Shown here one piece after another: positions 12,271-63,829 of a DNA stretch of 64,000 nucleotides. The stretch is from Chiloscyllium plagiosum. Taxonomy: Eukaryota. Each line of letters opens with the position of its first letter. Positions within the stretch are counted from its first letter, which is position 1. Under the pieces are notes generated by a model that saw only the letters and a program-made list of their open reading frames with translations, was not told the DNA's origin and made no database searches. A program made the translations under genes and the position numbers. The stretch spans positions 32,552,585 through 32,616,584 of the forward strand of contig NC_057730.1 in NCBI RefSeq assembly GCF_004010195.1, written 5' to 3'.

Positions 12271-12306
12271 CATAGTTTTCTTATAATCCAGTTTGGTGAA
12301 ATACAA

Positions 12307-12474
12307 GGCAGAAGTGGGTACTGCAGATACTGGAGATTAGAGTCGAGATTAGAGTGGTGCTGGAAAAGCACAGCAGGTCAGGAACCATCCGAGAAGCAGG
12401 AAAATCGAGGAATGGATTAATTGTTGATGAAGGACTTTTGCCCGAAACGTCGATTTTCCAGCACCACTCTAATC
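12307..12474. mobile_element. 168-bp non-coding PLE-tail insertion with inverted halves
   Basis: Antisense tail then sense tail with TTGATGA...CCCGAAACGTC; flanked by 14-bp direct repeat TTGGTGAAATACAA (12293-12306 / 12475-12488). Confidence 0.75.
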
Positions 12475-12640
12475 TTGGTGAAATACAAACCTATTGGTAT
12501 GACATGTACTTCTGTGTTAGAGACTGTAGGTTTAATCCTAACTATAGGATTGGAACCGATAATCAAGGCTTCCCTCTTGCTGAATTTATGTTAGCCAGTC
12601 TGATATTAAACTTATTTTTTCCTTGATTTTCTATCACTAG

Positions 12641-17910: not shown

Positions 17911-18081
17911 TTTTTTAAGTCTGTTTTGTCAGCTGTCAATGAACATTTAAATCAATGTTTAAATCAAGTAATTTCTCAGTCACTGATTATCATTACTTTT
18001 TCTCATTGCTCCATAATGCAGCATTACATTCAGTATGTTCTGCGTGTGTGTTTATACTCAAGATAAATGATAAATTTATTG

Positions 18082-18274
18082 ATGTGGAAATGCTGGTGTT
18101 GGGCCACGGTGGACAAAGTCGGAAATCACAGCACAACAGATTAAAATCACAAGCTTTCAAAGTGCTGCTCCTTTGTCAGGTGGATGGACCTTCCACCTGA
18201 TGAAGGAGCAACGCTCCAAAAGCTTGTGATTTTAAATAAACCTGTTGAACTATAACCTGGTGTCATGTGACTTC
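18082..18274. mobile_element. Palindromic PLE-tail mini-element with two decayed hammerhead motifs
   Basis: Inverted arms centred ~18188; CTGATGA at 18197 (GAAA mutated to AAAA); direct repeat TAAATTTATTG at 18071-18081 / 18275-18285. Confidence 0.75.
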
Positions 18275-18442
18275 TAAATTTATTGTTGTAATAAACCATT
18301 AAGTAGTAAGTATGATTCTCCTATTTTTGGTTGTTGCCATATATGTGTGTCATTTGATATCTGATACAGAAATATATCACTGTTTCTTCACTGACATTGG
18401 GCAAAATTTTGGAACTCTCTCCCCCCACTACTGTTGAGAGTA

Positions 18443-27379: not shown

Positions 27380-27716
27380 GGCAGGGAATATTTTGTGTAG
27401 ATAATCAAATGCCAGATAATATAGTTTAGCCAAGCATCGTCACCTTGCGCTCTTGTTCGGATAATCCGAAATTTGGATAGTCGAATACCGGATAATCGAG
27501 GTTCCTCTGTGTAGAGGCTCGTTTGAAGAATGTGCACATCTGTCAGTGACCTCTATGATTTCACAATATGCGCAGGTTGGAAGAGGCTCATTATTGAGAA
27601 AATTTGTCCTGTGGAGCAGCCTTGATTGCTCTTGTGAAGTAGAGTTGCTCTTCAATAGCAATAGTTCTTTGTACTCATATTTGGAGTTTAAATAATTTTC
27701 TCACTTGTCTTTATAG

Positions 27717-27878
27717 AATCCATCAACCTCCTGTATTATTGACTTATGTACAGTATTCTGGATGGTGAAAGAGGCTAAAACATTATGCATTGCCTGTGCT
27801 TGTGAAACAGCAGTGTTCTTGTGGGCCCCACAGCAGCTAAACCAGTGGACTAATATCCATATGTGGGTCTTTGATAAA
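27717..27878 (+). CDS. PALB2: PALB2 exon 8 (WD40)
   Basis: NPSTSCIIDLCTVFW...CIACACETAVFLW...QWTNIHMWVFDK; 162 nt, like human exon 7. Confidence 0.95.
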
Positions 27879-28850
27879 GTAAGGATACCAGTTCTTCTTG
27901 TGCATTGCCTTAACTGATCTGACAATCTAGTATTCAGTGCTAAATAATTTATGTTGAACAGCGTTTGAATCATTACTTTAAATTCTGTCAGAATTTTTAA
28001 TGCCTTGTCAAAAATTGCAAAGTTTAAAGCCTTATTAATTTGTTTTCAAATATCTGCAAACATACATATGAAACCATTTAATAACAGTCTTCTACTTAGA
28101 ATGGGAAAAGATTGGAATGATGTGGTTAAAAACAGTGTTACAGTGCAATTGGTGCTACAGACTGAAACTTAACACTACTGTACCTATTGTCTCCTTGTTC
28201 TCCTCCCCTCATCCCAAAAGATCTTCTAGATTTGCCCTATATACCTGAAGTTCTCTCCCCTGAGGTTGGGAGAAGTCTTAATTCCATGTTCCCACCACAG
28301 GATCCTTAAGAAATGTTACACAATATATGTATGGATTTAAAAAAAAGAAAATTCTAACCTTAATTCACCAGACAGGATTAATATGGCAGGGGAGAGGAAT
28401 GTATTGCCTCCCCCTCATCTGAACCAGTGCCACTGAGTCAGCTGATAGATGACAGAAAAAAGCAGACCCGGGATCAGCTACTTTTGCCTTCTCAAGCACC
28501 TCGTCATCTTTTGTTTGTGAGAGGTTGGTAGGGATGTGCCCAGCAGAAGCCCAAATGTGATAAAGCGGCAATCAGGAATTTATCTGAGTCTTAAATCTAT
28601 TAAATGCTCCAATCTGGTTTTGCGTCACAAAAGTGGACAGCCTTTTCAGTTGGTTATGTTCAGTAGCCAGTTGACAACTGTTCGGCTTCATATACAGTTC
28701 ATATTGTGTTTTAGAGTCAAAGGTAATCAAAAAGTGTGCTAAAGCGAATGACTTGTTGTTATGATTAGTGACAATGAACAGGACCCTCCTATGTCTTTTA
28801 AAAAAATACTGATATTGCCTTGATGTGATTACACTTCCCCACTCTTGCAG

Positions 28851-28936
28851 GTTCCTATAATTGAACTCATCCCCATTCCAGATGCTGTGAACATCCTGTG
28901 TGTGGCCTTTGGAAATCTGGAGATAAGAGAAGTCAA
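28851..28936 (+). CDS. PALB2: PALB2 exon 9 (WD40)
   Basis: VPIIELIPIPDAVNILCVAFGNLEIREV; 86 nt. Confidence 0.95.
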
Positions 28937-30533
28937 GTAAGACAACAAAGCATATTGACAAAATCATGGAAAGAACTGATTGTTTACACTCTCAGTATTT
29001 TACAGAGAAGTGAGGGTTTGCACTACATTTAAAATTGTGGAGTAATTTTGTTTTCAGTATTAAGTGAGGTTACTGAGAGAGTCCTTCGCAGCCTCTCCTC
29101 TCACCCAGTGACCCTCAGGTTTAGCCACCACGAGTTGTCTCTCTCTAATGAGAAAGCAGCCCTAAGATGTTGTATGACAATGGTGACGTCACTTGAATTT
29201 TGTATCCTGACATGTTTTTTCCGAAGCTTGGTATTTTTGTGGTAATTAGACTTTCACGGACCAACTATTGTTATGACAAGGTGAGGAGAAACCCCTCCCT
29301 TCAGTCAGTTGCAACAAACTTTTTTTTTCTTTTTAGCATGCAAATACATCACATAAGATGTAATTATCTAGATCTAAATGAAGGAGCCAATTACAAGGTT
29401 TTCTTGAGTAAAAGAAAGAAGAACTTTATTATCGACTAACCCCAAGGAAAAAGTAATAAAATGTGACATTTCAACAAGCATATAAACATGAGCAATAAGT
29501 TTAAAAAACAGACTGTTACATACTGGGAGAACTAAAGTCATACAGTTTAAAAGCCCTCGGTATCTTTGAGGTGTTAGATTCTATTCCTGAGGCTATGATT
29601 GGTTAGTTATTGACCTGTTTCTGCATCAGTAACAGAATCTGTAAGTACTGTAGTTTTGAGTTCTCGGTGAATGGTTATTTCTCCAAGTTGCTTTTCCACC
29701 AGGTTCTGTTTTGCAATTTGATGAGAAAGAGTTAAAGTTGTAGCTGTTGTCACAAATGCATTTATCCTTCTTTCTGCCCTGCTGTTCAAAAACAGCTGTT
29801 GAAATGTAATTCAATGTGTATTTCAGAACCTAGCTCCATTGTCTTTCCAAATGGTTAACTGGATATGTTGGTTTTTCATCTCCCAATGTTTGAAATTATC
29901 ATGCACATTTGAATTAAATAGGAGATGTGAATTTCTTGAAGCTGATTCAGTTGCCTTGCCTGCTTTCACTGGCTTTTGTTGAAAATAGTAATTTCAGTGC
30001 ACTAGGTTTACTTATTGCACACAAGTCTCTTGAATAACTTTTCAATCTGTGGTCAAGTCATCCAGTGCAGCCATTTTAGTTCCATATTTTGTACTTTTTA
30101 AAAACCACTTTAATCTAAGAACTATTAGATACAATTAGCAATTAGCAATAGGAAGTTAAATTCATTGATCCATATTTACTATTTTGGTAACAATATTTTC
30201 ATAAAAATAATCAGTTGTGCAGTTTATTTTAGTTGGAATTGACTCTCACCCTTCCTTATATTATTCTTTGCACTACCAGTGTGTAGTGCATTGGAAAAGT
30301 GGGAAGTGGACTTAAATACTGCTAAGGTGTGAAACCAGAACAGAGGCTAGATATTTCTACATAATGGGGCAAGAATACAGATTTAGACCTTAAGACTGGA
30401 GTATAGGGGAGGTGGTGGCATAGTGGTAATGTACATGGAATAGTAATCTAGAGTCAGAGGTGAATGTTCATTGAATCCCACCATGACACAGGGGAAAATT
30501 TGATTAAAAAGAAAATCTAGGATTAAACATTGA

Positions 30534-31606
30534 CATAGAACATAGAAAAATACAGCGCAGTACAGGCCCTTTGGCCCCCGATGTTGCGCCGATCCAAGCC
30601 CACCTAACCTACACTAGCCCACTATCCTCCATATGCCTATCCAATGCCCGTTTAAATGCCCATAAAGGGGGGATCCAAGATAGCGGCGACCCAGTAAGAC
30701 TGAGTCTATAGTGCTCCTCCCAAGACTTGGGCACAGTGGGTCACCTACCCCCTACCAAGCTCACCAAATCATTTATAAATCATTTATAATAGTTTAGTAA
30801 CTCAATTAGTTGTGTAATATTATATTTAAACAACTTTATCCTAAGTTAAAATGACTAAAGGGAAAGGAGCCCGAGGCTCTCAGCAAGCAGGAACCCCTCC
30901 CCCACACTCTACAGCTGCAGCAGAGGCGTCCACAGCCGCCCCGGGAGACTTACCAACAGTAGCAAGTCTTGCAGAAATGCTTTCCAAGCTTGACTCGAAG
31001 ATCGATGCCTTTATCGTCAAATCCAGAAATCGTTGGGAGTCGCTCTCGGCCGCGCTGCAGAAGCACGACCGTGAAATTGAAGAAATTCAAAGCCGAGTCG
31101 GAGGGGCGGAGCTAAAGGCCGCGACCTCGGAGACAACCGCTCAATCGGCCGTGGATCAAGTCCGGACTCTCGAGCAGCGAGTCCGGACCTTGGAAAATCA
31201 TATTGACAACCTCGATAATCGAGGTCGNNNNNNNNNNNNNNNNNNNNNNNNNNNNNNNNNNCTAGTGACTGCACTCCAAGATGAACCTTTGCCATCAACT
31301 ACTATCCTCTGTCTTCTTCCAGCCAGCCAACTCCTAATCCAAACCTCCAACTCACCCTCAATGCCATACCTCCGTATTTTTTGCAGTAGTCTACCATGGG
31401 GAACCTTATCAAATGCCTTACTAAAATCCATATACACCACATCTACCGCTTTACCCTCGTCTACCTCCTTAGTCACCTTCTCAAAGAATTCAATAAGGTT
31501 TGTGAGGCATGACCTGCCCTTCACAAAACCATGCTGACTATCCTTGATCACATTATTCCTATCCAGATGTTCATAAATCCTATCCCTTACAATTCTCTTT
31601 AAGACC
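30534..31606 (-). mobile_element. CR1 LINE fragment (tail 30534-30667, RT 31262-31606)
   Basis: Reverse-strand TTCTATG tail repeats; minus [18 protein letters not shown]...[14 protein letters not shown]. Confidence 0.85.
30667..31227 (+). mobile_element. L1-clade LINE 5' end: 5'UTR + ORF1 N-terminus, runs into an N gap
   Basis: GGGGGGATCCAAGATAGCGGCG start; ORF from 30851 is a heptad coiled coil ending LENHIDNLDNRG (L1 ORF1p LENRSRR-like); CpGs retained. Confidence 0.75.
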
Positions 31607-32212
31607 TAATGACAACAATGAAACCATTGTTATATAAAAAGTCTATCTGTTTCACTCATGTCCTTTAGGGAAGGAAATCTGTCATCTAGCCTAAAGATGA
31701 GTCAAACCCACAGAAATGTGTTGACTCTGAAATGCCTTCTGAAATGTCCAAGCAAGATACTCAGTTGAAGTGCAGTCAGGGGCAACCATCAAATGCAGGC
31801 CTTGCTGGTGACACCCACATCCCTTCCATTGTGATGAATTTTATTAGTGTATTAAAAACTTCTTTTGAATAGAAAATTACTTTGCTTTTGCTTAAAATAC
31901 TGTGCTTCAAGCACTAAAAAGTTTTATTGTGTATCTAATCTGTGCTTGTACCTGCCATTGGTTACTTTTAATGCATGGGGTGCTTTGCTTGTACGTAAAA
32001 TGAATTGCACCAGATTTGTTTTTAATATTGTTTTGAAAAGTGGTGAACTATTCTATTCCCAGCACAGATCACCTTTCACATTTCATCAAATGCTTTTTGT
32101 GTATATAATCAACAAAAAAATTTTACCCAGAATATTAACTACAATTCTCATCATAGGCCAATTGGAAATGCAACCCAGCTGATTAATTTTTTTTCTATTG
32201 GCCTTTTTTAAG

Positions 32213-32371
32213 AGTATTGCACTCTGTTGAGAGAAACTGCTTGGAACACACCCTGCTGCAGACAGGAGATATAAATGCATTGCTTGGGCTGCCTGGAAGG
32301 AGGCTGGTCTGCTCTTGTGGCACACTTCAAAGTCAGTACATAGAATTGAACATCCTATCCAAAGAAGGAAG
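32213..32371 (+). CDS. PALB2: PALB2 exon 10 (WD40)
   Basis: LLQTGDINALLGLPGRRLVCSCGTLQSQYIELNILSKEG; phase 2-2. Confidence 0.93.
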
Positions 32372-33657
32372 GTCAGATTCATTAGTGTTTTTTCTCTGTG
32401 TTACTTGTTGGTTTGCTTTGCCTTGAGCTAAAAGAGGTACGCCATAATTTAAATGTTTATTTTGTGGGGATAAATAGGAGTCCTATTATTAATTAAAGCC
32501 CCAGCTATATGCATACCCCAGACTGAATCTTTACTCATTATTTTCCTTCAACTTTTTTGACTTCGCACTCAGGTCAATGCTAAAGGCAGATAGTAAATAA
32601 CATTTCATTACAACACCAAGTAATAGCAAGAATTGACACCTACTAGTTCTGGTCCCTGTAAAGTTGATCAGTTTGTTTTTTGGGGAATATGATTCAACAG
32701 ATTCAATAAAACCCTTCGTGGACAAAGTGAGCATCTACCTCGAATGTGCTTCAAAGTCAAACCTTTAAATAAGCGAAGATAATTGAGATGTGAAGAAAAC
32801 CATTGTGAAATTTTGAAATTTATTTTTAAAGGATAAGCTGCTGAAAAACATTATAAAACTAAACCTGTTAGATTTTATGCAGTAATATGTAAAAGACTCC
32901 AGGATGGTAAAACCCGGGTTGATAGAATTACTGCCAATATTTTTTATTTAAATCTGTGACACCAAATTATTTCTCTGAGCAAAAGATCTCAATTATTTAT
33001 TCAGTCCCAGATTTTTGTTTCCTTGACTGAAATGAGAAGTATTACTCCAAATCCTCCAAATACAAAATAATTCCAGCATAGTAAAGCGAAATAGGATGGA
33101 TACAAAAACAAATCTTTCTCTTTTTGTGACAAAAGTATAATTTCATAGCAAGGCAATTGTGAAAATTGTAGTAAGCAAAAAATCTAGATTTGAATTTCTA
33201 CATAGAAATGTTTTCAACCCTTTACAATGTAGTTTAGCTTGTCAGCAATTAGCTGGAGATGTGACTGGAAAAGTTGTAAATTTTATTCCAGTCTAGTTAT
33301 AATATTTTTTAGACCTTACCAACTGTGATAAAATGAACTTTAACTATGCATTTCTTATACTCCATAGTAGAATGTTGTCACAAAACTTAATACTTGTTCA
33401 AAGACAAGTGATTCCAGTCTGATAATATAGACGTAAGTAATACAATCAAGCAAGATCCAGGAGACCACAGTTCCCTTGACTAATTACATCGTAACTCCTT
33501 TCCCAAACCCAATATTGGTTAAAGCCCATGAAGAGAGCCCGAGCTGCTGAATATTGTCTTTATAGAGCAAAGAGATAATGTAAGGGGAGGAGAAAAAAAT
33601 GTCACTTGAGTTAATAGCAGTTTTGTGATTTTTTTTTGCCTGAATTTTTGTGGTTAG

Positions 33658-33774
33658 GCGTGAACGATGTATGCAATTGGTTCCACCCAATGAGATGGTA
33701 CTAGCTTTCAGTGAAGTCAAAGGGGAGGCAGAAGCTTTGATTGGATCGACAATAATGAGCAATATTGTCATTTG
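33658..33774 (+). CDS. PALB2: PALB2 exon 11 (WD40)
   Basis: [33 protein letters not shown]; 117 nt. Confidence 0.95.
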
Positions 33775-34280
33775 GTAAGTACATGCTTCATTTAACTGGA
33801 TTAGAGAGTAGATGTACAAGTCATTTGTGAATTCATTCATTCATTTATCCATTTTTAGCCATGTCCAGTCTGACTGTTTCCTGTGACTAATTTGAACAAA
33901 GAGGCTGAAATTATTAATAAAAAATCTTGAAGTAATAAAAATGTTTAAAAAATGGTTCTTAATCCACTGTTGTTAAAGGATCTTGCTGTGCAAATAAAAT
34001 TTGCTACATATAATATACCAATATACTTAAAATGAATAAAATGTTTTCGATGCTACTTAGACATTTCGGACAGAAGTGGTAATTATCAACACAAAAGCAT
34101 TCTTTAAACTACTGAAAGTGTTTTAATCTAAGCCTTGTCACAGCCCCTCCTGCTGAACTCCTGTCCTTACTTTCTCTCTGCTTTGCCTCATTGTTCTAAT
34201 GATTCCGACATGAAACTATTCAGAGACTGTTGGTCAGGAGGGAAACTCTGTTCAGATTAACTTTTATTTATCTCTCTTAG

Positions 34281-34368
34281 GAACTTAAAGACTGGACATC
34301 TTCTGAAGAAAATCCATTTAAGTGAAAGCTACCCGGGCACTGTCTGCCAGAAGGCCTATTCAGAGTCT
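34281..34368 (+). CDS. PALB2: PALB2 exon 12 (WD40)
   Basis: NLKTGHLLKKIHLSESYPGTVCQKAYSES; 88 nt. Confidence 0.95.
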
Positions 34369-35572
34369 GTAAGGAGCAATATTTTTTATCTTTATTACTG
34401 CAAAAAGTGGTCCCAGGCTACTAATTTGTGCAGTTCAGAAAATGTTCGCTACACTAATAACAGAAATGATTGAATTGCCTTATAAGGAAAGCTTTCACAG
34501 GCAAGCTATTGTCTGCTGGAGTTTAGAAGTGTAAGTGGTGACTGGATTGAAATATAAAACCCTGAGGTTCTTGACAGAGTGCATGTGAAGAGGATGTTTC
34601 CTCCTGTGGGAGATTCCAGAGATGAGAATAATTATTTCAAAATAAGAAAATCTTTGTCACTCTCTTCCCCAAAAGATAGTAGAAGCAGAATGTTTGAATA
34701 TTTTTAAGCTACAGACCAATAGCTTTTTGATAAACAAAAGGGTCTAAGATTATAGGGATAGCTGGGAATATGGAGTAATCAAATCAACTATAATCTTATT
34801 GAATGGCAAATTAGGCTCAAGGAGCTGAGTGATTTATTTTGCTCCCATCTTATGCATTAATATCCTTAAAGGCATCCTTACCTGTCTGACCTACATGTGG
34901 CTTCAGAACAATTCCTGTTGACTTAATCTGCCCTTTATGCAAAAATACTGGCACAGCCAACAAAACCCACATCCCATGAGAAAATGGATAAATAAATAAA
35001 TACAGCAAAAGTGGACTGTTTGCTTTGAATAAACTGCATATGGCCGTACACCTATGGTGCAGTCTTCATAACCTTGGATGAATAACAATTATTTATTTAC
35101 ACTCTCTTTGCAATGTTGGTAAATGAGAACTTTACGAGGTCTGGACCAGTTGACTGGCCAACCATTTGATTAAATAACTTACAGCAATTACTCAAAATTC
35201 ACAACAGGACCCAATGCATCAGTGAGAGTTTAAAAGGCAAGTTAATTTTTGCATATCAATCCTCTAACAAATGTGAGGTTTGAACAGGGTTGATAGCTGA
35301 AATGTATTTTCCGTACTGTACAAATGCTGACTTTTATGGATATATTTTTAGAATCTGTAGTCTGTTTATCTTTGCAGCTGCATTTCTGTCCAAATTAAAT
35401 AATAAAGGCTACTGCTTTGAGTCTTACTGGAAAATGGCAGAATGCAGAAAATACAGAATGTAATCTACAGAGCAGTGATTTACCTACAATTAAGCAGGGG
35501 CTGTAACTGCAATTGAACAGAATTATGATTGCAGCTTCCAAAGCAGCAGTAAAAACTTGCAAAATAAAAATT

Positions 35573-36535
35573 TACAATGGATGAGTGGACACCGAACAAC
35601 AATCGCCAAACAGGGTGTTCCCTCGCAGTCAGGGAACACTTCAGCGGTCAAGGACATTCGGCTTTGGATCTTCAGGTGACTGACCTCCAAGGCAGACTTT
35701 GGGATGTGCAACAACGCAGAGTCGCCAAGCAGAGGCTGATAGCCAAATCCGGTACCCATGAAGAAGGCCTCAACTGGGTTCTTGGGTTCATGTCACAAGA
35801 CAGGTGACTCCACTACACCATACATATACACTCTTACACACGATCACAATCACGCAGACCCTCTCTCATACACGTGCTATCTCTCAGATACACACTGCCA
35901 CACTCAACATTCACGCACAGGCATATACTCCATCTCACGCACACACAAACACTTACCCCCCCCCCCCCCCCCCTCCACCCACACACACACACACTATCTC
36001 ACAGGTACACGCATGCATACACACACAAATCTTTGGGATGAATTTGTATTTGCTGATTTTTATTTGCGGATACATTCTATTTTGTTCAAAAAGCACACAA
36101 TCTGTAGACAGTCAGTCCATGTGACATTTTATAAATACCTACTTTGGAAGTAGAACCAGTCTGACTCAAGGTTGGAATATAGACAGACTAACCCCACACC
36201 TTTAATGCATTGTCTTGAGCTGAGATGTCACCTTTTTTAAACCTTAAGTTATTTCATGAATGTGACTTCTGGGATTTACAAAGTAATGAATCGAAACCTG
36301 CAACTCATTCTAAGTGATTAAAGACATAATTGCAATCTAGATTTGTTCAATACATCACACAGCTGTATGATACTTTGATCTTTTACTATACACTCTGTGT
36401 CGTATGATCCTGTCCCAGACGAAGGAGCAGCACTCCGAAAGCTTGTACTTCCAAATAAACCTGTTGGACTATAACCTGGGTGATTTTTAACTTTGTCCAC
36501 TCCAGTCCAACACTGGCACCTCTATCCACCTCCAT
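35573..36535 (+). mobile_element. Penelope-like 3' fragment with CA-rich tract and decayed hammerhead tail
   Basis: SLAVREHFSGQGHS...QRLIAKSGTHEEGLN (GIY-YIG C-terminus); CAGACGA-AGGAGCAGCACTCC-GAAAGCTT at ~36416-36445; near-perfect 13-bp flanking repeat 35560-35572 / 36536-36548. Confidence 0.8.
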
Positions 36536-36597
36536 CAAAGTAAAAATTGATAGTCCTTTTCAAATTAAAATATTTAATAATTAATTTTGTGTTTTAG

Positions 36598-36755
36598 GGC
36601 ATATTGTTTGTACTCTTCAGTCATCGGTATGTTGGCAATTGTGATGGATCTGGTGGAAATAGAGTCTGTGCTTTAAGAATGGTTGGTGTCAATCCTATGA
36701 ATGGTAAAAGTAGACCTGTCATGTCCTATATGCTTCCACTGGAATGCCACGGAAG
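36598..36755 (+). CDS. PALB2: PALB2 exon 13 (WD40)
   Basis: GILFVLFSH...LRMVGVNPMNGKSRPVMSYMLPLECHG; phase 0 to 2. Confidence 0.93.
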
Positions 36756-37648
36756 GTAAGATGCATTCTATATTGCATATAAATCAATGTCCTGCTTTGG
36801 GAAAGTCCCACTCAGTCCTCAGTGTTATGGGCCTCGACAGACTCAAAGTTCTCTGGTTCATTCCCCTGTTTGTTAAACTAGCAGGTCGCAACAGGGGGGA
36901 TTTCATTAGAATGCTTTCATCGTAAACATATGCTAATCCAGCTGTTCTGAAAAGGTTTCTGTTTAAGTGCTGTCCTCCTCAATTTGGTGCACAATTAAAC
37001 AAGTAAGCCTTCCAAGAAAACTAACTCTTGTCAATTCTGTGAATCTGAGTTGTACAGTTAGGCTATCTATATGAGATCTATGGATCCAGAATTAAGTAAA
37101 GTGAGAATCTGGTTCTGTGTCATATCAACCATCATCGTGGGCTTCCATTTTATAATCACATTCTTTGTGACTTTTTTAAAGTATCATTAAGCACAATCCC
37201 CAATTCTACTATCTGAAGCAGCAGAATTACTGGATAAACGAATGAGATCTTTATCTATCCAGCAATACAAAGCTCTAAAATAGATGACAGAAACAAATGA
37301 GACTTCAGTTGCTGACTGAAATCCCACTGTATTGCATTTGGAATGAAGCAGTACAAGAGATCGCTGTAATGACCATCCATTGGAAGAATCTAATTGACCT
37401 TCCTGATTTTGCAGTCAACTTAACTTTACACTCCTTTGAATTTGAAGGAAATTAAAATTGGGCACAGGTGTAAAGCAAGTTCCTGATCCAATCCATTTGA
37501 TCCCCTGCTGGGTATGTTAGTTTAAAATGACTCTTCCAAAATATGCTGCAATGTTTTATTTACTTAGCTCACTAACGGTAGCAGTGATAAAATAGCTATT
37601 TTTCTCTCATGTTTTTTTTCCTTTTAAATGTATTTATTTCTGGAACAG

Positions 37649-37880
37649 GTACCTTGTCGGAGGTGTGAAAGACCAGTCCATCGCAGCAATTGTAACCCCT
37701 GGAACCCTGATTCTTTGGGATGTACTTTCTGGCCACATCGCGACCATTCTACACCATGGCCCCAATGCATACTGGTCACTTTTCCACTGGGCAGAAGCCA
37801 ATTCCTGCCTCCTGGCCAGAAAGAATGACCAAACTGTATATATCTATAAATATGTGGGAACTGGAATGGATGAAGTATGA
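37649..37880 (+). CDS. PALB2: PALB2 last exon (WD40 C-terminus, stop)
   Basis: YLVGGVKDQSIAAIVTPGTLILWDVLSG...WSLFHWAEANSCLLARKNDQTVYIYKYVGTGMDEV*; summed exons 3951 nt = 1316 aa + stop. Confidence 0.95.
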
Positions 37881-37985: not shown

Positions 37986-40825
37986 TTTTTAGGACAAAAC
38001 ATTGCAGTGGGAAGAAGACTACTTTTGTTTGCTGTGTACTATGTAAAGTTGTATTACAATTTAGATTGATGTACTGAACTGTTGTATAGTGTCTGTTATT
38101 GCTGTCAGGGAAAGCCAGGTTTGAAATCAGGACTGGCCAATTTCAGCAAAATGTTCGGAGGATACTTAGCGTACGATATAGAAAATCCCCTTTAGGTGAG
38201 TAATAGACACCACTTTTCTTTCCAAATGTACTGTCTGGGTAATTTGAGATAAGTATTGTGAACTTCCTGTGTCATAATTTTACATTGAAGGGGTCATTCT
38301 TACTCAGTTTCACAAATGGTTTTTCTTTGTTGACAGAGTTCAGTCCTGAAAATATCAGATGGAAACATCTGCATTATCTTAATGTGTTAAAAACCATTGT
38401 AGTTAATTTGGGATTTACAGCTTGAAATGAGTAAGAGGATATCGCCATATATTTTGTTTTGATCATTTGAGTGTAAAAATGTGAGTAAGAACAGCAGTAT
38501 CATCACAGCTGTTTACTAATAATGAAAGATAGATGACCAATCAATTCTGTGTTCCAGCTCACAAGCTGTCTTCATTCACGTGGCCAGCCTCCTTCAATTG
38601 TGCAGCTGTCTATGAACAGGTATTGTTGATCTGGGCAAAGTTTTATATTGGCAGTATCATTGCAAGGGACATCATTTAATATTGTCCCAAGAAATAGTGA
38701 GTAGAGTGGCTAGAAAACATCCTTGCTTCCTATCAGTATTAGAAAGTTAATTATCACCAGTCACAATTTACTAGTAGAGCAGCATTTGTCAAGGCATCAA
38801 GAACTCTAGCTCGCCTGATCAAATATGAACTGTCCACAGAACAATCAATATGAATATAAGAACAGATAGAAATATTACATGCGAGAATATAAGCAAGTAC
38901 TTACCAGCCTAAAAAACTAGATATGAAGAATATTGTTGACAAGACTGACAATTCAAACAAGTTGGAAATATGTTGTGGATAGTTTGGTATTTTCAAGCAG
39001 TTTGCATTTATTGACAATTGTCATAACATCTGTAGTGATGTATGATTGGACAATTCCATTTGCAGTCCCCTGAATTAATACTTTAAGAGGGTGGATGGAG
39101 AGGTACCAGCTTTTGCTCAGGCAGTGGCTGTTGGAAGAATGATAAAAGAAGAATCTGGGGCCATTCCCCGCTGCTGGTTGTAACAGTCAGAGCTAAGTTA
39201 GTTGTAGATTCAAGTCCACTGCAGAAACCTGAGCTCAGAAATCTGTGCCAATACTTGAGGGCTCTACAGAAGGAATGTTGACTTTTGCATGAGGTTTGAA
39301 ACCAAGAACCTAAATATTTTATTATGCAGAAATAAAAGATCCAAGATTTGATCTATTAGAAGTTTTTGATTGGGAGTGAGACCCAGCATCGAGAGAATGA
39401 CAAAATGAAAAATGTAAAAGCACTACTTATAAAGAATAATAAAGAGGAATTATAATTAAAGCTAATGATATTGTACATATTGCAACCCTCTTCTTTGAAA
39501 CAAAAAGTAAATTGTAAACACTAGAAACTTAAATTCTAGAAATATAGAGTCTATGACTACCTAAAACAAATGCTTTGTATTCATCTTCAGTCCTTATGTT
39601 TTGAAAATGCTTTTTAAAAAATATTAAAATCAAGTTCATTGTGTAACTAAGATTACCTGAATACATATGAGATCATTCTCTGATTTCCTTCACTCCTGTA
39701 TGATATGCTTCCATACCTGATAACCATTATACATTGTATCGTGATGCAGGATAAAATAAGTCTGTTGGTGTTTTCAAAATATTATGAGTTTGTGCTTACG
39801 ATGATATATTTGTGAGGCACAAATGTGACTTATGTTGAAGATTTTTTCTTTGGGAACAGTGATTTGTTGGTATTTAAGAGATAACTATAATGAGGACTTG
39901 GGCAAAGGGATGACTTGCTACAAATTACACTTGCCTACCTCTTCAAAACTTGCAGCATAGCTTGTTTGAATGTTTTTTCTGTACTGAAGAATAGGAAATA
40001 ACATTTTTTTAAAGTTTAGAATTGGAACAAGAACATTTATTTAATGCCACTGCCAAATAGTACCAAGCAATTTCACAAAATTTGACATTGACCGACATTA
40101 AATATTAAAGCTGGTGAGGAAAGCTTTAAAGACTGTTTTATTGTAGAAAAGAGGCAGGGTTGTTCATAAAGGGGAATTCCAGATCTTAGTGCTTCAACAA
40201 CAGAAGGTTTAGCCACCAGTGGAATGATTAAAATTTGGGAGGCAATATAGCCCACAATTAGCGGAATGTAGAGATCTTGAAGGAATAAGCCCAATGCTAG
40301 GTTATTAGAACTTTTTTGTGATATGTAAAATAGGTAGGATACGGATATGAAGTATGATTTATATTTGTAGGTGGATCACATCTTATGATATCAAAATGTC
40401 TTAAGTGCTTTTCATTAGGCCTCCCCAAATCAAAAGGAATTAATGGTAATTTCAAGGGACTAATAATTCACAGACCTATCTTTGCCAGGTCTGACCTACA
40501 TGTGGCTATATATTCAGTGATGTGGTGGACTCCACTCTAGTGATGCATTCACTTGTACCAACCACTAGAAATTTAAAAAGGAATGAAACTAGATGCAGCA
40601 AGACATTGATTAAAGCAGGAAAGACAACAGCAAACACAGCTCTCCCAGATGTTGGTAAAGGGAGATTTTGGAGTGTCAGTGGGGCTGTCTCACAGGCTAA
40701 TCAGGCAGCAGCCTGACATAGTCATACTCATGGAATCATACTGTACACACAATGTCCCAGACAACCATCACAAGTCTATGCCATCAACAGCTCAAAACCA
40801 GCAGAGGTGGCAGCACAGTGCTACA

Positions 40826-41609
40826 TTGTGTAATCATTAAAAACACAGAAATAGAGAACACACACCGGATCATCAACGCCACACTCACAGGAATCCGATT
40901 CACTAGAGAGGAAGAAAAGGACAACCAGCTCCCTTTCCTAGATGTGATGGTACAGAGAACACCGAACGGAGAATTCACCACAAAGGTATACAGGAAAGCC
41001 ACACACACAGACCAAGTCCTAAACTACGAAAGCAACCACCCCAACACAAAAGAAATTGCATCAAGACACTATTCAAAAGGGCCACAACACACTGCAGTAC
41101 ACCAGAACTGCAAAAAGAGGAAGACGAACCCCTATACAATGTATTCGCCAAAAATGGATACCCGCGCACTTTCATCAACAGATACCTAAGGGAAAGACAA
41201 CGGAATGAGGACATGCCGCAACCCAAAGGACTAGCCACACTACCATACATCAAAAACATTTCTGAACNNNNNNNNNNNNNNNNNNNNNNNNNNNNNNNNN
41301 NNNNNNNNNNNNNNNNNNNNNNNNNNNNNNNNNNNNNNNNNNNNNNNNNNNNNNGCCAGGGAATTCCTAGAGGCATGGCACTCATCCACAGATTCAATCA
41401 ATAAGCACATTGACCTGGATCCAATATACCGACCACTGCAGCGGACAGCTGGAACTGACAACCGGAAGCGGCAGATTCAAACCACTACAAATGCTGGAGG
41501 AAAGATCACAGAAGCGCTTCACAGGAGGCTCCCAAGTACTGAGGATGTCACCTAGACGGGACGAAACGTCTGTAACACAAATTCCCAGCTCAGCGAACAG
41601 AACCACAAG
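40826..41609 (+). mobile_element. Penelope-like (Poseidon-type) fragment
   Basis: GIRFTREEEKDNQLPFLDVMV...VYRKATHTDQVLNYESNHP, ATLPYIKNISE, REFLEAWHS; flanked by AGTGCTACA/AGCGCTACA. N gap 41268-41354. Confidence 0.85.
41536..41573 (+). ncRNA. Minimal hammerhead ribozyme motif
   Basis: GTA-CTGAGGA-T-GTC...GAC-GAAA-C-GTC-TGT; intact core, GUC triplet. Confidence 0.65.
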
Positions 41610-44600: not shown

Positions 44601-44883
44601 CCAGGTAGAAAGGAAAATTATGGGACAGTCCTGGACAATTCCTAGTTGGTGAAGGGCCCTCTCATTCAGCTTCTAACCCAGGCTGCTCTATAAAATGATG
44701 GTTGTACATGTTTCCTGTTGTATATTGCCCCCTATAAAGATGGTGGTGCACTGTAGCTTCCTGATGCACTTTACCCCCTAAAAAAAAGTGTTGGATGCAT
44801 ATGCTTTCTGCTGCTTCTCTGGATGCTCCAAACCACTTCCATCTCGTGGCCAATGGCAGGATTGCTGTTGAGCAAAAAGTTTA

Positions 44884-45089
44884 AAGTTAAAAATCGCACA
44901 GCACCAGATTATAGTCCAACAGATTTATTTGGAAGCACTAGCTTTCAGAGCGCTGCTCCTTCATCACAACCACCTGATGAAGGAACAGCGCTCCGAAAGC
45001 TAGTGCTTCCAAATAAACCTGTTGGACTATAACCTGGTGTTGTGATTTTTAACTTTGTACACCCCAGTCCAACGCCAGCACCTCCAAAT
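44884..45089. mobile_element. Palindromic hammerhead-bearing mini-element
   Basis: 44883-44966 is the reverse complement of ~44975-45057; 11-bp direct repeat CAAAAAGTTTA at 44873-44883 / 45090-45100. Confidence 0.85.
44971..45005 (+). ncRNA. Minimal hammerhead ribozyme motif
   Basis: CAC-CTGATGA-A-GGAAC AGC GCTCC-GAAA-GC-TA-GTG: stem I CAC/GTG, palindromic AGCT stem III, CUA triplet. Confidence 0.7.
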
Positions 45090-45889
45090 CAAAAAGTTTA
45101 TAAAATCCTTGGAAGAAACAAAAAGTAGGATATCTAATAACTTTTCATCAAAGAGGAATGTTGAGGTCAGAACAAAGTATTTGTTGTCTATTCCTAATTC
45201 TTCTTCAACTGAGTGGATGCTGAGAAAATTCAGGGTACTTTTAGAGTAATCCACATTGCTTTGCTTCTAGAATCACATGTAGACCAGAATCGATAAGAAT
45301 GGTAGATTTGCTTGTCTAAAGGACATCCATGAATCATAATTTTTTTAACTACAATCAACGGTAGTTTCACGGCACCGTTACTGAGACTAGCTTTCAATTC
45401 CTGATTGTATTAACTTGAACCCCTGTCCCCAGAACATTAGGCTGGGTTTCTATATTACTACCTTACCCATCTTTATCATTGAAGAAGAGCTTTTCATTAT
45501 AAACCAGAGTGTCACCCTGTAGATCTTCCCAAATGCAAGCAAGACAAGCAATCAACTAAGTTAAAATTAAAATCTGGAGTATCTATTTTGATCAACCTTA
45601 GCCAGAGGTTCTGGCTCAGACATAGGGACCCTTGGAGTCTGGAGTATCATGACCCATGCCTCCCCAGTGCAGTAACCTGGGTTGCACTACTATCTCCACA
45701 AAGGTAGGTAAGTTCCATAGTAGCTGCTGGATTGTGTGGTGCCGGAAAAACACAGCAGGTCAGGCAACATAAATAGTTGAAGAACTCAAAAAATCCGGGA
45801 TAAGCCTTCAGTACTGGATGTGGGTGGAAGGGCAGCAGCACATAAAGGTGGGTGAGGGGGGCGGGGAAGCCAGCTGAGGGGAATAGGTG

Positions 45890-46031
45890 AAGACTGCACA
45901 CCCTCCCTGGACAGCGCCACCTATGGCGGAAGGTGTAGAGCTCTGGGGCGGGTCAGGCCGGGCCGCGCATGGGTGTTGTTGCCCTTGTCACAGCCGCCGC
46001 GGTGCACGTTGGACACACAGTCCTTTCCAAG
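45890..46031 (+). promoter_or_regulatory. NDUFAB1 CpG-island promoter/5'UTR
   Basis: CpG-rich; GC box GGGGCGGG ~45945, CGGAAG ETS-like site, YY1-like AAGATGGCG overlapping the ATG. Confidence 0.75.
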
Positions 46032-46196
46032 ATGGCGCTGCGTGTCCTCTCTCGATGCGTCCGACGGTGGCCGCAACCTTGGAGCAGGTCAAGGGTAGGC
46101 CCGAGCGCCGGGGCCCAGCCTCTCGCTGGAACCGGCAGTAGCTACTCTCAACACGTTTGCAGCAGGCGGGCTGTTGGCGAGGCGCCCCGGGCTCAG
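46032..46196 (+). CDS. NDUFAB1: Mitochondrial acyl carrier protein, exon 1 (transit peptide)
   Basis: MALRVLSRCVRRW... Arg/Ser/Ala-rich presequence, CAG|GTAATT donor, in frame with exon 2. Confidence 0.88.
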
Positions 46197-46864
46197 GTAA
46201 TTTGGAGTTTGGTGATTAGGCCGGACCCTGACTCCGAGAGGACACTGAGGCAGCGGGTGTAGCATAATCCCAAGTGCCAGCTGCGTCGGAGGAGATTGCG
46301 CTAAAAATCCTTCATCATTCGATGAAATTTGATTTCAGATAGAAAGTGCGGAATACAATGCTATAACTCCCAAATCGATTGGTGGAGTTTAGAGTTTTAG
46401 CCTTCGGGGAAAGTGCACTTGGGTTCCTCAGTATTCTTAATTGTCAGGGTCAAATCTTCAAACTGGGTAAGAAGATTTAAAATCAATGCATTTATTAAAA
46501 ACTTCAGGACGTTTTGTAGTAACAAAAGTAGGAGCAGAATTGGCCATACGACTCCTCAAGCCTGCTCGATTATTCTGTTAAAACCGTGACTGAGCCTCTA
46601 CATAGACTACACTTTCCTTGCTGATTCCCCAGATTTGTTGAATTGCTTAATTTTAAAATGCCGTTCATCTGTATCTGGAAAGTACTTAGGAGTATTTTCA
46701 GGACTCTGGGGTAGGTAATTTTAAATTTCACAATCCTCTGAGTGAAGAACTTTCTCATCTTTTAATCTGAAATTAAGTTTTCTGCCCTATTACCCCACAT
46801 GTTCCATAACACATTTGAAGTGAAGTCTGCGATGTGGGGAAAGCGGGAACTAAATTATGTGTAG

Positions 46865-47585
46865 TTAAAAATCACCCAACACCAGGTTGTAGTCCAACAG
46901 GTCGGTTTGGAAGTATAAGCTTTCAGAGCACTGTTTCTTCAGCAAGTAGCAAGTTGGGCAGGATCATAGGACACAGAACTTTTAGTAAAAAAATCAAATT
47001 ATCCTACAACAGATGCAAATAATTGAACAAAGCTAGATGGCTGTTAAGTCTTTAATCACTTAGAATGGGGATGCAGATTTTGCGTGATTAATTTGTAAAT
47101 CCCAGAATTACTTTCAAGTCCCTGTCCAGAGATTACTTAAGGATTTATAACAACAAAGTGACATCTCAACTCAGACAGCACATTAAAGGTGTGAGGTTAA
47201 GGTTAAACACACAATCAGTCCATGTGACATTTTATAAATTCCTACTTTGAAAATAGGCTCAGTCTGACTCAAGGTTGGGGTTCAAACAGACTTGAACCTC
47301 ACACCTTTAATGCGTTGTCTGAGCTGTCACTTTTTAAATAAAACCTTAAGTTATCTCAGGGCTGTAACTTGAAAGCAGTTCTAGGATTTACATATTAATG
47401 AATCGAAACCTACATTCCCATTCTAAGTGATTAAAGACTTAACAGCAATTTAGATTTGTTCAATACTTTGTGTCAGTTTTATGACACTTTGATCTTTTAC
47501 TATAAGTTCTGTGTCCAATGATCCTGCCCCACGAGCTACCTGACGAAGGAGCAATGCTCTGAAAATTGTACTTCCAAATAAACCT
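46865..47585. mobile_element. ~720-bp inverted-repeat PLE-tail element in NDUFAB1 intron 1
   Basis: ~46900-47200 is the imperfect reverse complement of ~47293-47585; decayed hammerhead CTGACGA at 47540. Confidence 0.75.
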
Positions 47586-51189: not shown

Positions 51190-51477
<288 letters not shown>

Positions 51478-54725: not shown

Positions 54726-56559
54726 AGCTCTAGGTAAAGTTCCTTCTGAATCCCTTGTTGGATTTCTTGGTGACAGCCTTATAGTGATGGTTTCTGGTCA
54801 TGCCCTTCCCATTTCTACATAATCTCCAACCAATCTATCATTGTTTTAAAGACCCATATTAAATTTGCCTTTGGCCTTTTCTCAAGACAGAGACCAGGCT
54901 GTCAATTCTTTCCTGATGTACAATCCCCATGTTTTTGGTATAACTCTTGTAAATCTCTGCAAACTCCTAGAGCCTCTTAATTCTGTTGTGTTTTATTTTG
55001 TACCTTTTTCAAATTCCTCTTCTTTTGTGTGATATGGAGATCAGAACTAGGTTCCGTTCCGAGTTTGGCTTTGGGACATTAAAGATCTGGTGTCCCTAGT
55101 CCAGCCTCCCTTAACTATGATTTGGAGGTGCTGGTGTTGGACGAGGGTGTACAACGTTAAAAATCACACAACTCCAGGTTATTGTCCAACAGGTTTACAG
55201 TATTAGGAAGCACTAGCTTTCGGAGCTCCTTCATCTAGTGGTTGTGAAGTATAAGATCGTAAGACAGAATTTACAGTGTGATGTAACTGAAATGATATAT
55301 TGAAAAAGACCTGAATTGTTTAAGTCTCTCATCTTTTTAGAATGAACGTGTCAGTTTCAGTTTTTTCATACGTAAATCCCAGAACATTTAAGATGTGAGC
55401 TGCCCTGTGTGAGACTGTCTGTGCCCCAATGTTCAGACTGATTCTAATTTAAAAAATGGATTTACAGAATCTTGCATGGATTCATGCAGTTCTTTGAGCA
55501 AAGTAAAATGTAATTCTGCAAGTACAAATTCAGCCCACAAACTTGTGTATGTGTGCATGTGGGTGAGTGTCTGTGAGTGTGTGTGTGAGAGTGTAAAGGG
55601 GTACAAGTCTTTGAGAGAGTGTATGTGTGAGGGAGGGTCTACATGAGTAAGTGAGGACTGCAGATGCTGGAGATCAGAACTGCTGTGCTTTTCCAGCAAC
55701 ACATTTTCAGGGTCTACGTGAGTGAATGGGTCTGTAGGAGTGTGTGTGTGTGTGTGTATAGTGCAATGGGGTCACCTGTAGTGACATGAACCCAAGGTCC
55801 CAGTTGAGGTCATCCCTATGGGTACCAAACTTAGCTATCAGCCTCTGCTCGGCCACTTTTCGTTGTTGCCTGTCCTGAAGTCCGCCTTAGAGGACAGTCA
55901 CCCGTAGGTCCAAGGTCAAATGTCCTGGACTGCTGAAGTGTTCTCCAACTGGGAGGGAACACTCCTGTCTGTTGATGTTGTAAGGTATCCGTTCATCCGT
56001 TGGCGTAGCCTCTGCTCGGTCTCTCCAATGTACCATGCCTTGGCATCCTCGTCTGCAGCGTATGAGACAACATTGGCTGAGTTGCGCGAGTACCTGTCAT
56101 GTGCATGGTGGGAGATGTCCGTACGCATAATGGTGGTATGCATGTTGATACTGATATCTTGCAGCATCCACCATGATGTCAGTTTTGTTTGCTAATGCTA
56201 ATGTATGGTGTTAGCCTGAAAGCTGGGCAGTTTGCTACGAGCAATGATCTGTTTGAGGTTTGCTGGTTGGTTAAAGGTGAGAAGTGGAGGTGTAGGGAAG
56301 GTCTTGGCAAGGTGCTCACCCTCATTGATAATGTGTTGCAGGCTGCGAAGAACGTGGCATAGTTTTTTGGCTCCTGAGAACTACTGGACAATGAAGGGTA
56401 CCCTGTCAGTTGCAGCTTGTGTCTGTCTCCTGAGGAGGTCATTATGGTTTCTCGCTGTGGCACGTTGAAACTGGCGGTCAATGAGCATCGTACCCAGTTC
56501 TTGATGAGAGCATCCTTGAGTACTTCCAGGTGTCCGTCACGTTCCTCCTCATCTGAAGT

Positions 56560-57570
56560 GAATTCAATTTATTGTCGTGTACCGAGACATAGTCTTGTGA
56601 GCAATACAGGCAGATCACATAGTTAAGTAGCATGGATGAGTAAATAATTGGTAAACAGCGGCAAAAACACAGGTATAGGTGAATGTTAAGAGTTTGAGTC
56701 CATTCGGTATTCTAACAACAGTAGGGTAGAAACGGCTATGAAACTAGCTGGTGTGTGTTCAGGCTTCTGCACCTTTTCCCTGATGTGAGAGGTTGTAGAA
56801 AAACATTGCCCGGGTGGGATAGATCTTTGAGAATGCTGGAGTCCTTTCCTTTACAGTGGGTCTGGTAGATGGATTCTATAGATGGGAGGTTGCCTTTGTG
56901 ATTGTCTGGGCTGAGTTCACCACTCTTTGTAACTGTCTTCAATCTTGAATGGTACAGTTGCCATACCAGGTAGTGATGCGTCCAGACAGAATGCTCTCGT
57001 TGGCTCACCTATAAAAGTTGGCTGGGGTATTCGCCATCATGCCAAATTTCCTCAGTTGCTTGAGGAAGAAGAGACATTTTTGGGCCTTTGTAACCAGCAT
57101 GTCCAAATGAAGAGTCTAAGAAAGCTTGTTACTGATGACCACTCCCAGGAGCTTGACACTCTCCATTCGTTCCATCTCTGTACTGTTAATGTGTAGGGGG
57201 GGGCATGAGTAACATCCCGCTGAAAGTCAATAATGGGTTCCTTGGTTTTGGTGGCATTGAGAGTTAGGTTGTTCTCAGTGCACCATTTTTTCAGGTCTTC
57301 CACCTCCTGTCTGTAGTCTGTTTCATTGCCATCTGAGATTCGACTGACTGTGGTGGTGTCATCAGTGAACTTGTAAATGGCATTAGTCTGGTATTTGGTG
57401 ATGCAGTCATGGGTATGCAGTGAGTACAGTAGGGGCTGAGTACTGGGGGGCTTCAGTGTTGGGTGTTGGTGAGGATGAAATATTGTCTCCAATCTTCACT
57501 GATAGTTTCCTGATCCACAGGCCACAAAGGATCCAGTTGCAGAGAGTGGGGCTTAGTCCAAGATCACTAA
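56560..57570 (-). mobile_element. Rex1/Babar-like LINE 3' fragment nested in the PLE
   Basis: LGLSPTLCNWIL, HDC...KFTDDTT...ETDYRQEV..L..WCTENNLTLNATKTKE..IDF. Confidence 0.75.
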
Positions 57571-58199
57571 GTTTAGAATAGATCCTGTGTATGCATAGGA
57601 CTTGTCCATAGGGGATGGCTGTTTTAATATGGTTCAAGTGGAAGCTGTAGAAGTGTAGCATCGTGGGGTTATCCGTGGGATTGTGGCAACAATGCAAAAT
57701 GGCAAAGTAGAGGCTGATAGCCAAGTTCGGTACCCATGGGGATGGCCTCAACTGGGACCTTGGGTTCATGTCACACTACAGGTGACCCCATTGCACTATA
57801 CACACACACACACAGATGGACACAGACACGTGGACACTCCTACAAACATGCACACTCTCCTACTGATCCATACATTCATGCAGTCTCTCATGCTCACATG
57901 TGCACCACTCACAGATTTATACCCTTTTACACACACACATACACACTCTCTCACAGACACTCCTAAATCCTGCCCCTGCCCCCAACCCACCCACCCACAC
58001 AAGTTTTGTGGGCTGAATTTGTACTTGCAGAATTACATTTTACATAGCTCAAAAACTGCATGAATCCATGTAAGATTCTGTAAATCCATTTTGTAGATTA
58101 AAATCAGGCTGACCATTATGGCACAGACAGTCTGACACAGGGCACCTCACATCTTCAAAGCATTATCTGGGCCGACATGACACCAATTGTTAAAGTTTT

Positions 58200-58475
58200 G
58201 GGTGGCACAGTGGCTCAGTGGTTAGCACTACTGCCTCACAGCACTAGGGACCCGGGTTCGATTCCAGCCTCTGGCGACTGTCTGCGTGGAGTTTGCACAT
58301 TCTCCCTGTGTCTGTGTGGGTGCAGGTCAGGTGAATTGGCTATGCTAAATTGCCCATAGTGTTAGGTGTATTAGTAGGGAGTTGGGGAATGGGTCTACGT
58401 GGGTTACTCTGCGGAGGGTCGGTGTGGACTTGTTGGTCCGAAGAGCCTGTTTCTGCACTCTTAGGGAATCTAATC
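58200..58475 (+). mobile_element. HE1-type tRNA-derived SINE
   Basis: A box TGGCTCAGTGG, B box GGTTCGATTCC, tail ending GGGAATCTAATCT. Confidence 0.88.
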
Positions 58476-58652
58476 TTGAGAATGTAACTTTTAAATGTTC
58501 TGCAATTTACATGAAAGAACTGAAAACAACATGTTCATTCTAAAAGATGAGAGACTTAACAAACAATCCAGGTCTTTTTCAATATATAATTTCAGTTACA
58601 TCACGCTAAGAATTTATAGCAAAAGTTGTCTTATGATCTTTTACTCCACAAC

Positions 58653-58687
58653 CACCTGATGAAGGAGCAGCGTTCTGAAAGCTAGTG
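58653..58687 (+). ncRNA. Minimal hammerhead ribozyme motif
   Basis: CAC-CTGATGA-A-GGAGC AGC GTTCT-GAAA-GC-TA-GTG; stem II retained through G-U wobbles. Confidence 0.65.
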
Positions 58688-59319
58688 CTTCCAAATAAAC
58701 CTGTTGGACTATAACCTGGTGTTGTGATTTTTTTTTTCCGCCCTTAACTGCTCAGTATAGATGTTTGAAAGTGATCTTTGGAGAATACCAATAGCACAAT
58801 CAATCTCAGGAAGAGCAAGCAAAATGAGCTAGAAATACAGCTGTAACTTGTAATCAGGAATGGTTTATGCTGTGAGCTTAATTAGAAAGTGATGTGCAGC
58901 CGACGTGCGCCTGTCCGCAGAGGGCAGTGAGTCGGACTTTTATCTTGAGTTCAGTATGAGGCGTGCCTTCGAGTTCCTGAAAAACTTGGAGGGCGCTTGA
59001 GGAAAGGAAATGTCTCCGAATTCCTTTTCGCCGCCTTATGGCGTATTTTCGAATAAATATACAGCACTTCACGGCACGCTAAATCCCTCGAATAGGCAAT
59101 CAATTATCCGTATATGTTCCTTTTTAAATAAAACCTATAGTGGGACCAACTGGACAGCTTTCAGTTAGTACAGGGACGATAAGCCCAACCTTTAAGGATG
59201 TTTCCTCTAGACTTGTTTTTTTTCTCTCGCCTCCCACCTCTATCTCTGCCAGCACACTGTCTTTTCCTGCTCTCGTTTCCTTCCCCTCTTGGTCTGCGTT
59301 CTCTTTCTTGTGCAGTTTT

Positions 59320-63589: not shown

Positions 63590-63829
63590 GTGAGTTATGA
63601 TACATTATAAACCACATTTAGAAATGTTTACAGCCTTCTACATGGAATAGAGGCTTGGTCAGCTGAGTTGGCTAAAAGACTGATGTGTTATGTGGAGCGG
63701 TTCAATTCCTGTACCTACTGAAATCACTGTGAAGGCCCCGTTCTCTCAGCCTTGCCTGTTGCCTGAGTGCGGTGACCCTCAAGTTAAGCTCACCATCAGA
63801 TATCTCAGAGAGCAGCCTGTGTACTGAAG

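Follow-up and report, generated by a model that had tools for sequence, protein, structure and literature searches.

Insertions of PLE retroelements typically carry an inverted, 5′-truncated copy beside their 5′ end and a tail of 30-40 bp at one end, as described by Craig et al. (2021, PMC8557442), and their target-site duplications measure 8-10 bp (Arkhipova et al. 2013, PMC3846280). Pairs of minimal hammerhead motifs situated 100-700 bp apart on opposite strands have been regarded as probable truncated PLEs by Cervera and de la Pena (2014, PMC4209133), whose results and discussion do not name sharks. On AT-rich DNA, the purified protein of an anole PLE, a predicted dimer, nicks both strands and extends each of them (PMC11167929); in vitro, reverse transcription by this system starts from two sites bounding the tail and uses uncleaved RNA as the template (PMC11167929). 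Non-LTR retrozymes are also PLE-related, short and non-coding, and carry a type I hammerhead motif (PMC7229834; bioRxiv 10.64898/2026.07.22.740005).

Here, we compare these systems with a small insert at 44873-45100 of a 64,000-nt stretch of the Chiloscyllium plagiosum genome (contig NC_057730.1, positions 32,552,585 to 32,616,584), hereafter the window. In common with endonuclease-positive (EN+) PLE insertions, the insert shows a head-to-head inversion, a tail at one end and a short duplication, and its parent encodes an RT with GIY-YIG at the C-terminus, but the insert is extreme in size, its arms comprising only the last 83-127 nt of the element, and is ORF-less and MITE-looking. MITEs are likewise short and non-coding, with inverted arms and a flanking duplication. 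In contrast to MITEs, the ends of the insert are asymmetric owing to the tail, its arms are retroelement 3′ ends, and its copies lack a common length or centre. With the minimal hammerheads of metazoan PLEs (PMC4209133), it shares the core bases, an extra base between positions 9 and 10.1, the G10.1-C11.1 pair, palindromic positions 15.2-16.2 and a short helix I; relative to the motif pairs reported there, its own pair is closer (~10 nt between the 5′ edges of the cores) and one copy is truncated at C3. The resemblance to Poseidon of Anolis carolinensis (PAc) extends to ends ~35 nt apart, an AT-rich target and a template uncut by the ribozyme, although the PLE of the insert probably belongs to another clade and the PAc paper leaves the formation of the inversion unshown (Frangieh et al. 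2024, PMC11167929). Retrozymes are direct tandems with a hammerhead in each unit and form circular RNAs (PMC7229834), whereas the insert is inverted with one surviving motif.

Anatomy of the insert

The insert is composed of the following features, in window coordinates.

44873..44883 (+): 11-bp target-site duplication, left copy, whose final base is common with the short end of the element
44884..44966 (-): left arm, an inverted 5′-truncated copy of the PLE 3′ end, starting at hammerhead U4
44965..44966 (unstranded): 2-bp microhomology at the head-to-head arm junction
44965..45055 (+): right arm, a second copy of this PLE 3′ end, 5′-truncated to a point 9 nt upstream of hammerhead C3
44971..45005 (+): minimal type I hammerhead motif, assigned from register alignment, read variants and the features in PMC4209133
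45056..45091 (+): PLE 'tail', 34-36 nt, on the right arm only, its last 2 nt overlapping the right duplication copy
45090..45100 (+): right copy of the target-site duplication

A flanking 11-bp duplication had been claimed in a preliminary description of this DNA, and the exact 11-mer is indeed present at 44873-44883 and 45090-45100, with 206 bp between the two copies, and at no other site in the whole window (2 matches against 0.13 expected). Anchored matches of at least 11 bp were found in none of 20,000 random flank pairs at the insert's spacing, and of at least 9 bp in four of them. As two bases at the start of the right copy and one at the end of the left copy also match the PLE family's own ends, the true duplication is 8-11 bp. 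The two inverted arms lie back to back, as had also been described, at 44884-44966 (83 nt) and 44975-45055 (81 nt), and differ by five substitutions and one 2-nt indel, i.e. at six places in ~82 nt. Folded as RNA, the insert forms a hairpin of -121.6 kcal/mol (z = -20.7), a stability reached by none of 200 shuffles. The element had been called palindromic, and this holds for the arms, which pair over ~81 bp, but not from end to end, for 34-36 nt (45056-45089/91) stay unpaired; rather than inverted repeats at both termini, the right end of the insert thus consists of these unpaired nucleotides. The extension, absent from the preliminary description, is the diagnostic part of the insert, the PLE 'tail'. 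The centre is itself an imperfect palindrome with an 8-nt loop.

The left arm ends at the family's short end without a tail, has lost C3 and helix I, and matches the PLE family as far as 44966. Raw reads filed under the same species label (X19) reach the right arm from common parental upstream sequence with an exact entry point at 44965 (6,818 reads), and leave it at 45091 into diverse sequence (6,925 reads, agreement 0.38); this entry and exit identify the right arm as the last 127 nt of a longer element. Since both arms are reduced to the last 83-127 nt of a PLE, no ORF is left in the insert.

The parental PLE family

The right arm, used as a query, gave 11 matches in the window at E < 1e-6, itself included. 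An alignment of the window copies shows that family members end at either a short end or a long end ~35 nt beyond it. The short end is used by the left arm of the insert, the right arm of the 18k unit and the left arm of the 46k unit, and about that place by the 54k and 58k copies; the long end is used by the right arm of the insert, the left arm of the 18k unit and the 55k and 61k copies, and nearly so by the 36k copy. The 55k copy has the same 3′ end and extends upstream into frames that align to residues 584-878 of the 881-aa protein P0009 (E 2e-34 and 2e-19), which has an RVT_1 domain, a cysteine-rich linker and a GIY-YIG-like C-terminus, the GIY-YIG assignment being indicated by Atlas and by the relative P0001, below the Pfam cut-off. 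Three of the four protein relatives looked up are shark-named. Judged from these alignments, the parent is an endonuclease-positive PLE with an RT followed by a GIY-YIG domain. Counting against the PLE link, Pfam identified a PLE domain in none of the nine PLE-remnant frames scanned, and a homolog search with the endonuclease remnant returned no match; across 11 frames, Pfam gave only RVT_1 and a weak RNase_H_2 match on a LINE fragment. The linkers of P0009, P0007 and P0002 contain a C-x4-C-x2-C motif, which fits Neptune or Nematis (PMC8557442), and from this linker motif the parent is probably of the Neptune type.

Several further features of the family were recorded. The first ~150 residues of P0007 (XP_067831053.1), a shark cytochrome P450 gene model, are the linker and endonuclease of this PLE family, probably an annotation artefact and possibly an exonisation. 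At 45040, most family reads have an additional TG not present in the right arm, 4,679 reads have an extra GT just past the predicted cut site (45002), and 145 reads step back by 37 nt (45044 to 45008). The read consensus beyond the tail would complete an ATG at the long end (45091), at an agreement of only 0.38, and this ATG may be the ORF start in tandem copies.

Other inverted units in the window

In addition to the insert, four inverted units were delineated.

18071..18285 (unstranded): sister unit of the insert's family, with an 11-bp duplication (18071-81/18275-85), a tail on the minus arm and a different centre
46863..47585 (unstranded): sister unit of another subfamily, with arms of ~340 and ~375 nt, centre near 47200-47210, right end lost
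55108..58749 (unstranded): long sister unit, 3.6 kb with later insertions, with a 9-bp duplication (55108-16/58741-49) and centre near 57680
12293..12488 (unstranded): same architecture in a different repeat family, with a 14-bp duplication and a 40-nt one-sided extension

The window thus contains four inverted units of the insert's family and one of another family, with arms from ~80 nt to 2.5 kb and centres that differ in all five. Unit sizes within the insert's family are 0.21 kb (the insert), 0.19 kb (18k), at least 0.72 kb (46k) and 3.6 kb (55108-58749). The architecture of the insert had been said to recur at 18082, 12307 and 46865; 18082-18274 and 12307-12474 are real inverted units, but none of the three copies the insert's own unit. 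The 46k unit has hammerheads at its outer ends and no flanking duplication was found around it, and in the 12k unit a hammerhead core is present on one arm only. The unit at 55108-58749, which is new relative to the preliminary description, lies ~11 kb from the insert; its minus arm is tailed and holds remnants of the RT thumb, linker and GIY-YIG, its plus arm is tailless, and its sequence is broken first by a LINE fragment (~56560-57560) and further on by a SINE-like insert (~58200-58475). Remnants of other PLE families are located at 11015-12270, 40722-41560 and 60240 and carry hammerhead motifs of their own (12144, 41539 and 60240).

Four of the 11 window arms start within ~12 nt of C3, which is beyond what random truncation alone would give and counts against the insert being simply a truncated copy, though these four arms represent just two insertions, one of them picked for that trait. 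A tentative explanation, likelier than a propagating family, is that cDNA synthesis preferentially ends at the 5′ edge of the hammerhead, through an RNA start or an RT stop, so that mini-palindromes are made repeatedly. The identity between the two arms of the insert is 93%, and that of an arm to other copies is up to 96%. Over the 52 columns of the core region, identities do not pair arms with their partners, and the sharing of a template by the two arms is therefore backed at the subfamily level only.

Origin of the insert

The features of an EN+ PLE insertion found here are an RT and GIY-YIG parent, an inverted truncated copy, a one-sided tail, a short duplication and a minimal hammerhead motif. 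It is likely that the insert is a single old and dead PLE insertion, extremely 5′-truncated, whose mirror half was made during integration, and the palindrome is probably a by-product of integration rather than a replicating unit. An extremely 5′-truncated PLE with the inverted pLTR had been one of the two origins first put forward, and the one-sided tail, the duplication, the link to an RT and GIY-YIG ORF and the differing centres of all five units support it. In the proposed mechanism, the GIY-YIG endonuclease would nick both strands of an AT-rich site, 8-11 bp apart, and each free 3′ end would then prime reverse transcription on uncut element RNA. One priming, at the outer start site, would yield the tailed arm, and the other, ~35 nt further in, the tailless arm. 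Both cDNAs would halt at the hammerhead 5′ edge, the two short products would join head to head via the 2-bp microhomology at 44965-66, and gap filling would create the target-site duplication. We infer that two primings built the two arms and that they were joined in this manner. At both the insert and the 18k unit, the target is matched by the final 2 nt of the tail, and these two cases suggest short primer-template pairing.

A variant of the same PLE origin places the inversion elsewhere, either in fold-back self-priming of a single cDNA or in a longer inverted unit that was repaired or partly deleted afterwards. Arkhipova et al. (2013, PMC3846280) explained palindromic PLE junctions by self-priming, and the 2-bp microhomology would also fit a subsequent deletion spanning the centre of such a longer unit. 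However, fold-back copying of one cDNA would not in itself end the second arm precisely where the family's inner start site lies, as is observed at the insert and, at roughly that position, in the 18k, 46k, 54k and 58k arms, and the centre with its 8-nt loop is only an imperfect palindrome. This variant is considered unlikely.

Copy number and recurrence of the centre

Genome-wide, the arm is present in ~62,000-94,000 copies at 88% likeness or above (peak depth in the X19 reads ~40,000), assuming a genome of 3-4.5 Gb. Among the 50,957 raw reads placed on the insert (X19), 723 fitted along their whole length, a count that also includes reads placed in pieces, and the 88% threshold passes a 150-nt read with a wholly different 8-10-nt centre. 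With all 723 counted as crossing the centre, the ceiling on arm copies that have the insert's geometry is ~4.6%, or ~2,900-4,300 loci. Several contigs traverse the centre ungapped at ~89% identity, one of them a 1,394-nt contig from the same organism at another locus. A near-identical geometry therefore recurs at other loci, which counts against a one-off event; the recurrence would fit breakpoints clustered at the hammerhead edge and, equally, a small family. Amongst the joints listed (15 of 713), the best-supported one across the centre has 19 raw reads. The window holds no second exact copy of the insert's centre, and exact scans of metagenome and viral contigs for the centre and an arm motif gave no hits, a result that is uninformative for a vertebrate repeat.

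These counts bear on the proposal that the ~206-bp palindrome is a non-autonomous family copied whole by the PLE machinery, in effect a retro-'MITE'. Such a family would account for the near-identical arm spacing at other loci, both in the ungapped contigs and within the ceiling just given, and PLE ends are able to mobilise unrelated sequence in trans (PMC3846280). Against this, the centre is single in the window and differs in all five units, the 6,818 reads that enter the right arm do so from parental upstream sequence, and the 723 reads are a mere ceiling under a threshold that tolerates a different centre. The RNA of the unit, an ~80-bp duplex, would presumably also be a poor template, and the design has arisen in two or more subfamilies as well as in a second family. 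We regard copying of the whole palindrome as improbable, and it is just as doubtful that the up to ~3,000-4,000 loci include a clade with a common centre and shared private substitutions. A literature search that reached a minority of subscription papers returned nothing on mini-palindromes in sharks or on palindromic PLE derivatives that propagate.

The hammerhead motifs

A complete hammerhead had been assigned to the plus arm, of which the core stands, but the motif is of the minimal dimer type: its helix I is 3 bp long, its helix II has an A-C mismatch, and a monomeric helix III is absent in this register. Helix I pairs 44971-73 with 45003-05, the core at 44974-80 is intact, G12 is at 44995 and the predicted cut falls after 45002. 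An extra base precedes helix II, which contains G10.1-C11.1 and a single A-C mismatch, the A at 44985 being a G in ~90% of family reads; a palindromic AGCU would form helix III only as a dimer. On the minus arm, said to carry a near-complete hammerhead with C3 lost, the loss of C3 is confirmed but near-completeness is not, as position 3 is a G and helix I is gone: this arm begins at U4 and the joint provides the G. In the anole PLE element, a C3G change abolished cleavage (PMC11167929).

In the predicted fold of the whole insert RNA, the arms form the ~80-bp duplex, 10 of the 11 core bases examined are paired and helix I has a probability of 0.000, and forcing the hammerhead fold costs ~44 kcal/mol, as computed for a neighbouring register. 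As helix I reaches a predicted probability of just 0.0002 even in the isolated plus arm, folding energies are a poor guide to the activity of the monomer; in vitro, single minimal hammerheads did not cleave (PMC4209133). A 3-bp helix I is present in 7 of the 11 window arms, in an arm table whose 47k row is shifted by a 1-nt deletion and whose 46k row is poorly aligned. Searched against the window, Rfam gave zero matches at gathering scores and no hammerhead model by E-value either. Generic microRNA and other hairpin models, which appeared by E-value below the cut-offs, were rejected as hairpin artefacts, and a first hammerhead register (3-bp helix III, 4-nt loop) was dropped in favour of the minimal register because it yielded no helix I. 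One hammerhead motif survives in the insert and, on these predictions, is probably silent. The start of each arm lies 28-37 nt before the predicted cut, consistent with a template RNA that the ribozyme had not cleaved.

The same features weigh on a derivation from a true animal (non-LTR) retrozyme, in which a circular RNA processed by the hammerhead would have been reinserted. A type I hammerhead motif within a short non-coding repeat is what this origin would leave, and the preprint bioRxiv 10.64898/2026.07.22.740005 reports cartilaginous-fish retrozymes and a derivation of retrozymes from PLEs. Yet the copies in the insert are head to head on opposite strands, with one of them dead, whereas retrozymes are head-to-tail tandems (PMC7229834); the ends of the insert lie away from the cut site, and neither the helix I probability in the whole RNA nor the cost of the hammerhead fold in the neighbouring register favours processing. 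A retrozyme origin is very unlikely. The broader suggestion that the element represents a retrozyme-like or MITE-like family is likewise improbable, given the lack of tandem direct hammerheads, ends off the cleavage site, a buried ribozyme and the want of a second such centre in the window.

Age and genomic position

Starting in the unique left flank, single-copy contigs extend into the element in organism A (33 nt, X2), organism B (23 nt, X5) and organism C (61 nt, X7); those that start in the right flank extend into it over 26-30 nt. Under a 31-letter bridging rule, only A and C pass, on the left, and B is suggestive at both ends; the insertion is thus present in organism C and probably in organism B. 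No empty-site joint is seen among the joints listed (15 of 713), and the related species sampled carry the insertion, from which it follows that the insertion predates the splits of these species, whose flanks differ by ~3-7%. Together with the six differences between the arms and the identities of 93% against 96%, its presence in C and probably in B marks the insertion as old and not recently spreading. Contigs from another sample and two other organisms enter the element from both unique flanks, and along with the arm differences and the exact flanking duplication leave next to no credence for a chimeric foldback in the assembly, even if inverted PLE structures are difficult to assemble (PMC8557442) and none of the contigs listed spans the whole stretch.

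The insert is located between the final PALB2 WD40 exon (~37.9 kb) and an acyl-carrier exon (~51.4 kb). Five frames of the PALB2-like gene at 13221-37880 (+) match PALB2_WD40 (27717-37877), and a PDB search with a PALB2-like exon gave no match. The large frames at 13221, 15872 and 19174, which have no database match, are probably earlier PALB2 exons, judging by a motif. Downstream, a PP-binding match lies in 51190-51477 (+), and a GC-rich frame resembling a mitochondrial presequence starts at ~46,030 (45900-46260, +), presumably exon 1 of NDUFAB1, the mitochondrial acyl carrier protein, given the gene order. The insert would then probably lie ~0.9 kb upstream of NDUFAB1 exon 1, and the 46k unit ~0.6 kb downstream of it. 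The domain scan for neighbouring genes covered the plus strand outside the element, with 86 of the 116 frames of at least 48 aa and 3 others. Elsewhere in the window, a decayed LTR retrotransposon, Gypsy-like by eye, occupies 21200-27400, with broken gag- and integrase-like frames and LTR-like direct repeats ~5.47 kb apart at 83-88% identity, and a frame at 63175-63600 (-) is CUB-like by eye.

Significance for PLE integration

Most likely, the insert follows a pattern already described for PLEs and is a neatly preserved instance of it, not a new self-spreading element. As a single locus it has little weight, being one among tens of thousands of PLE ends in the genome. For annotators, PLE stumps of this kind can be mistaken for MITEs or microRNA hairpins. 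A family with a shared centre, if one existed, would add a new type to the non-autonomous retroelements. Insertions as small as the present one, taken as a class, cleanly document PLE integration, a process that is still poorly understood: twin priming from the two known RT start sites would be expected to leave arms with two fixed ends, a short duplication and a centre that is new in every case.
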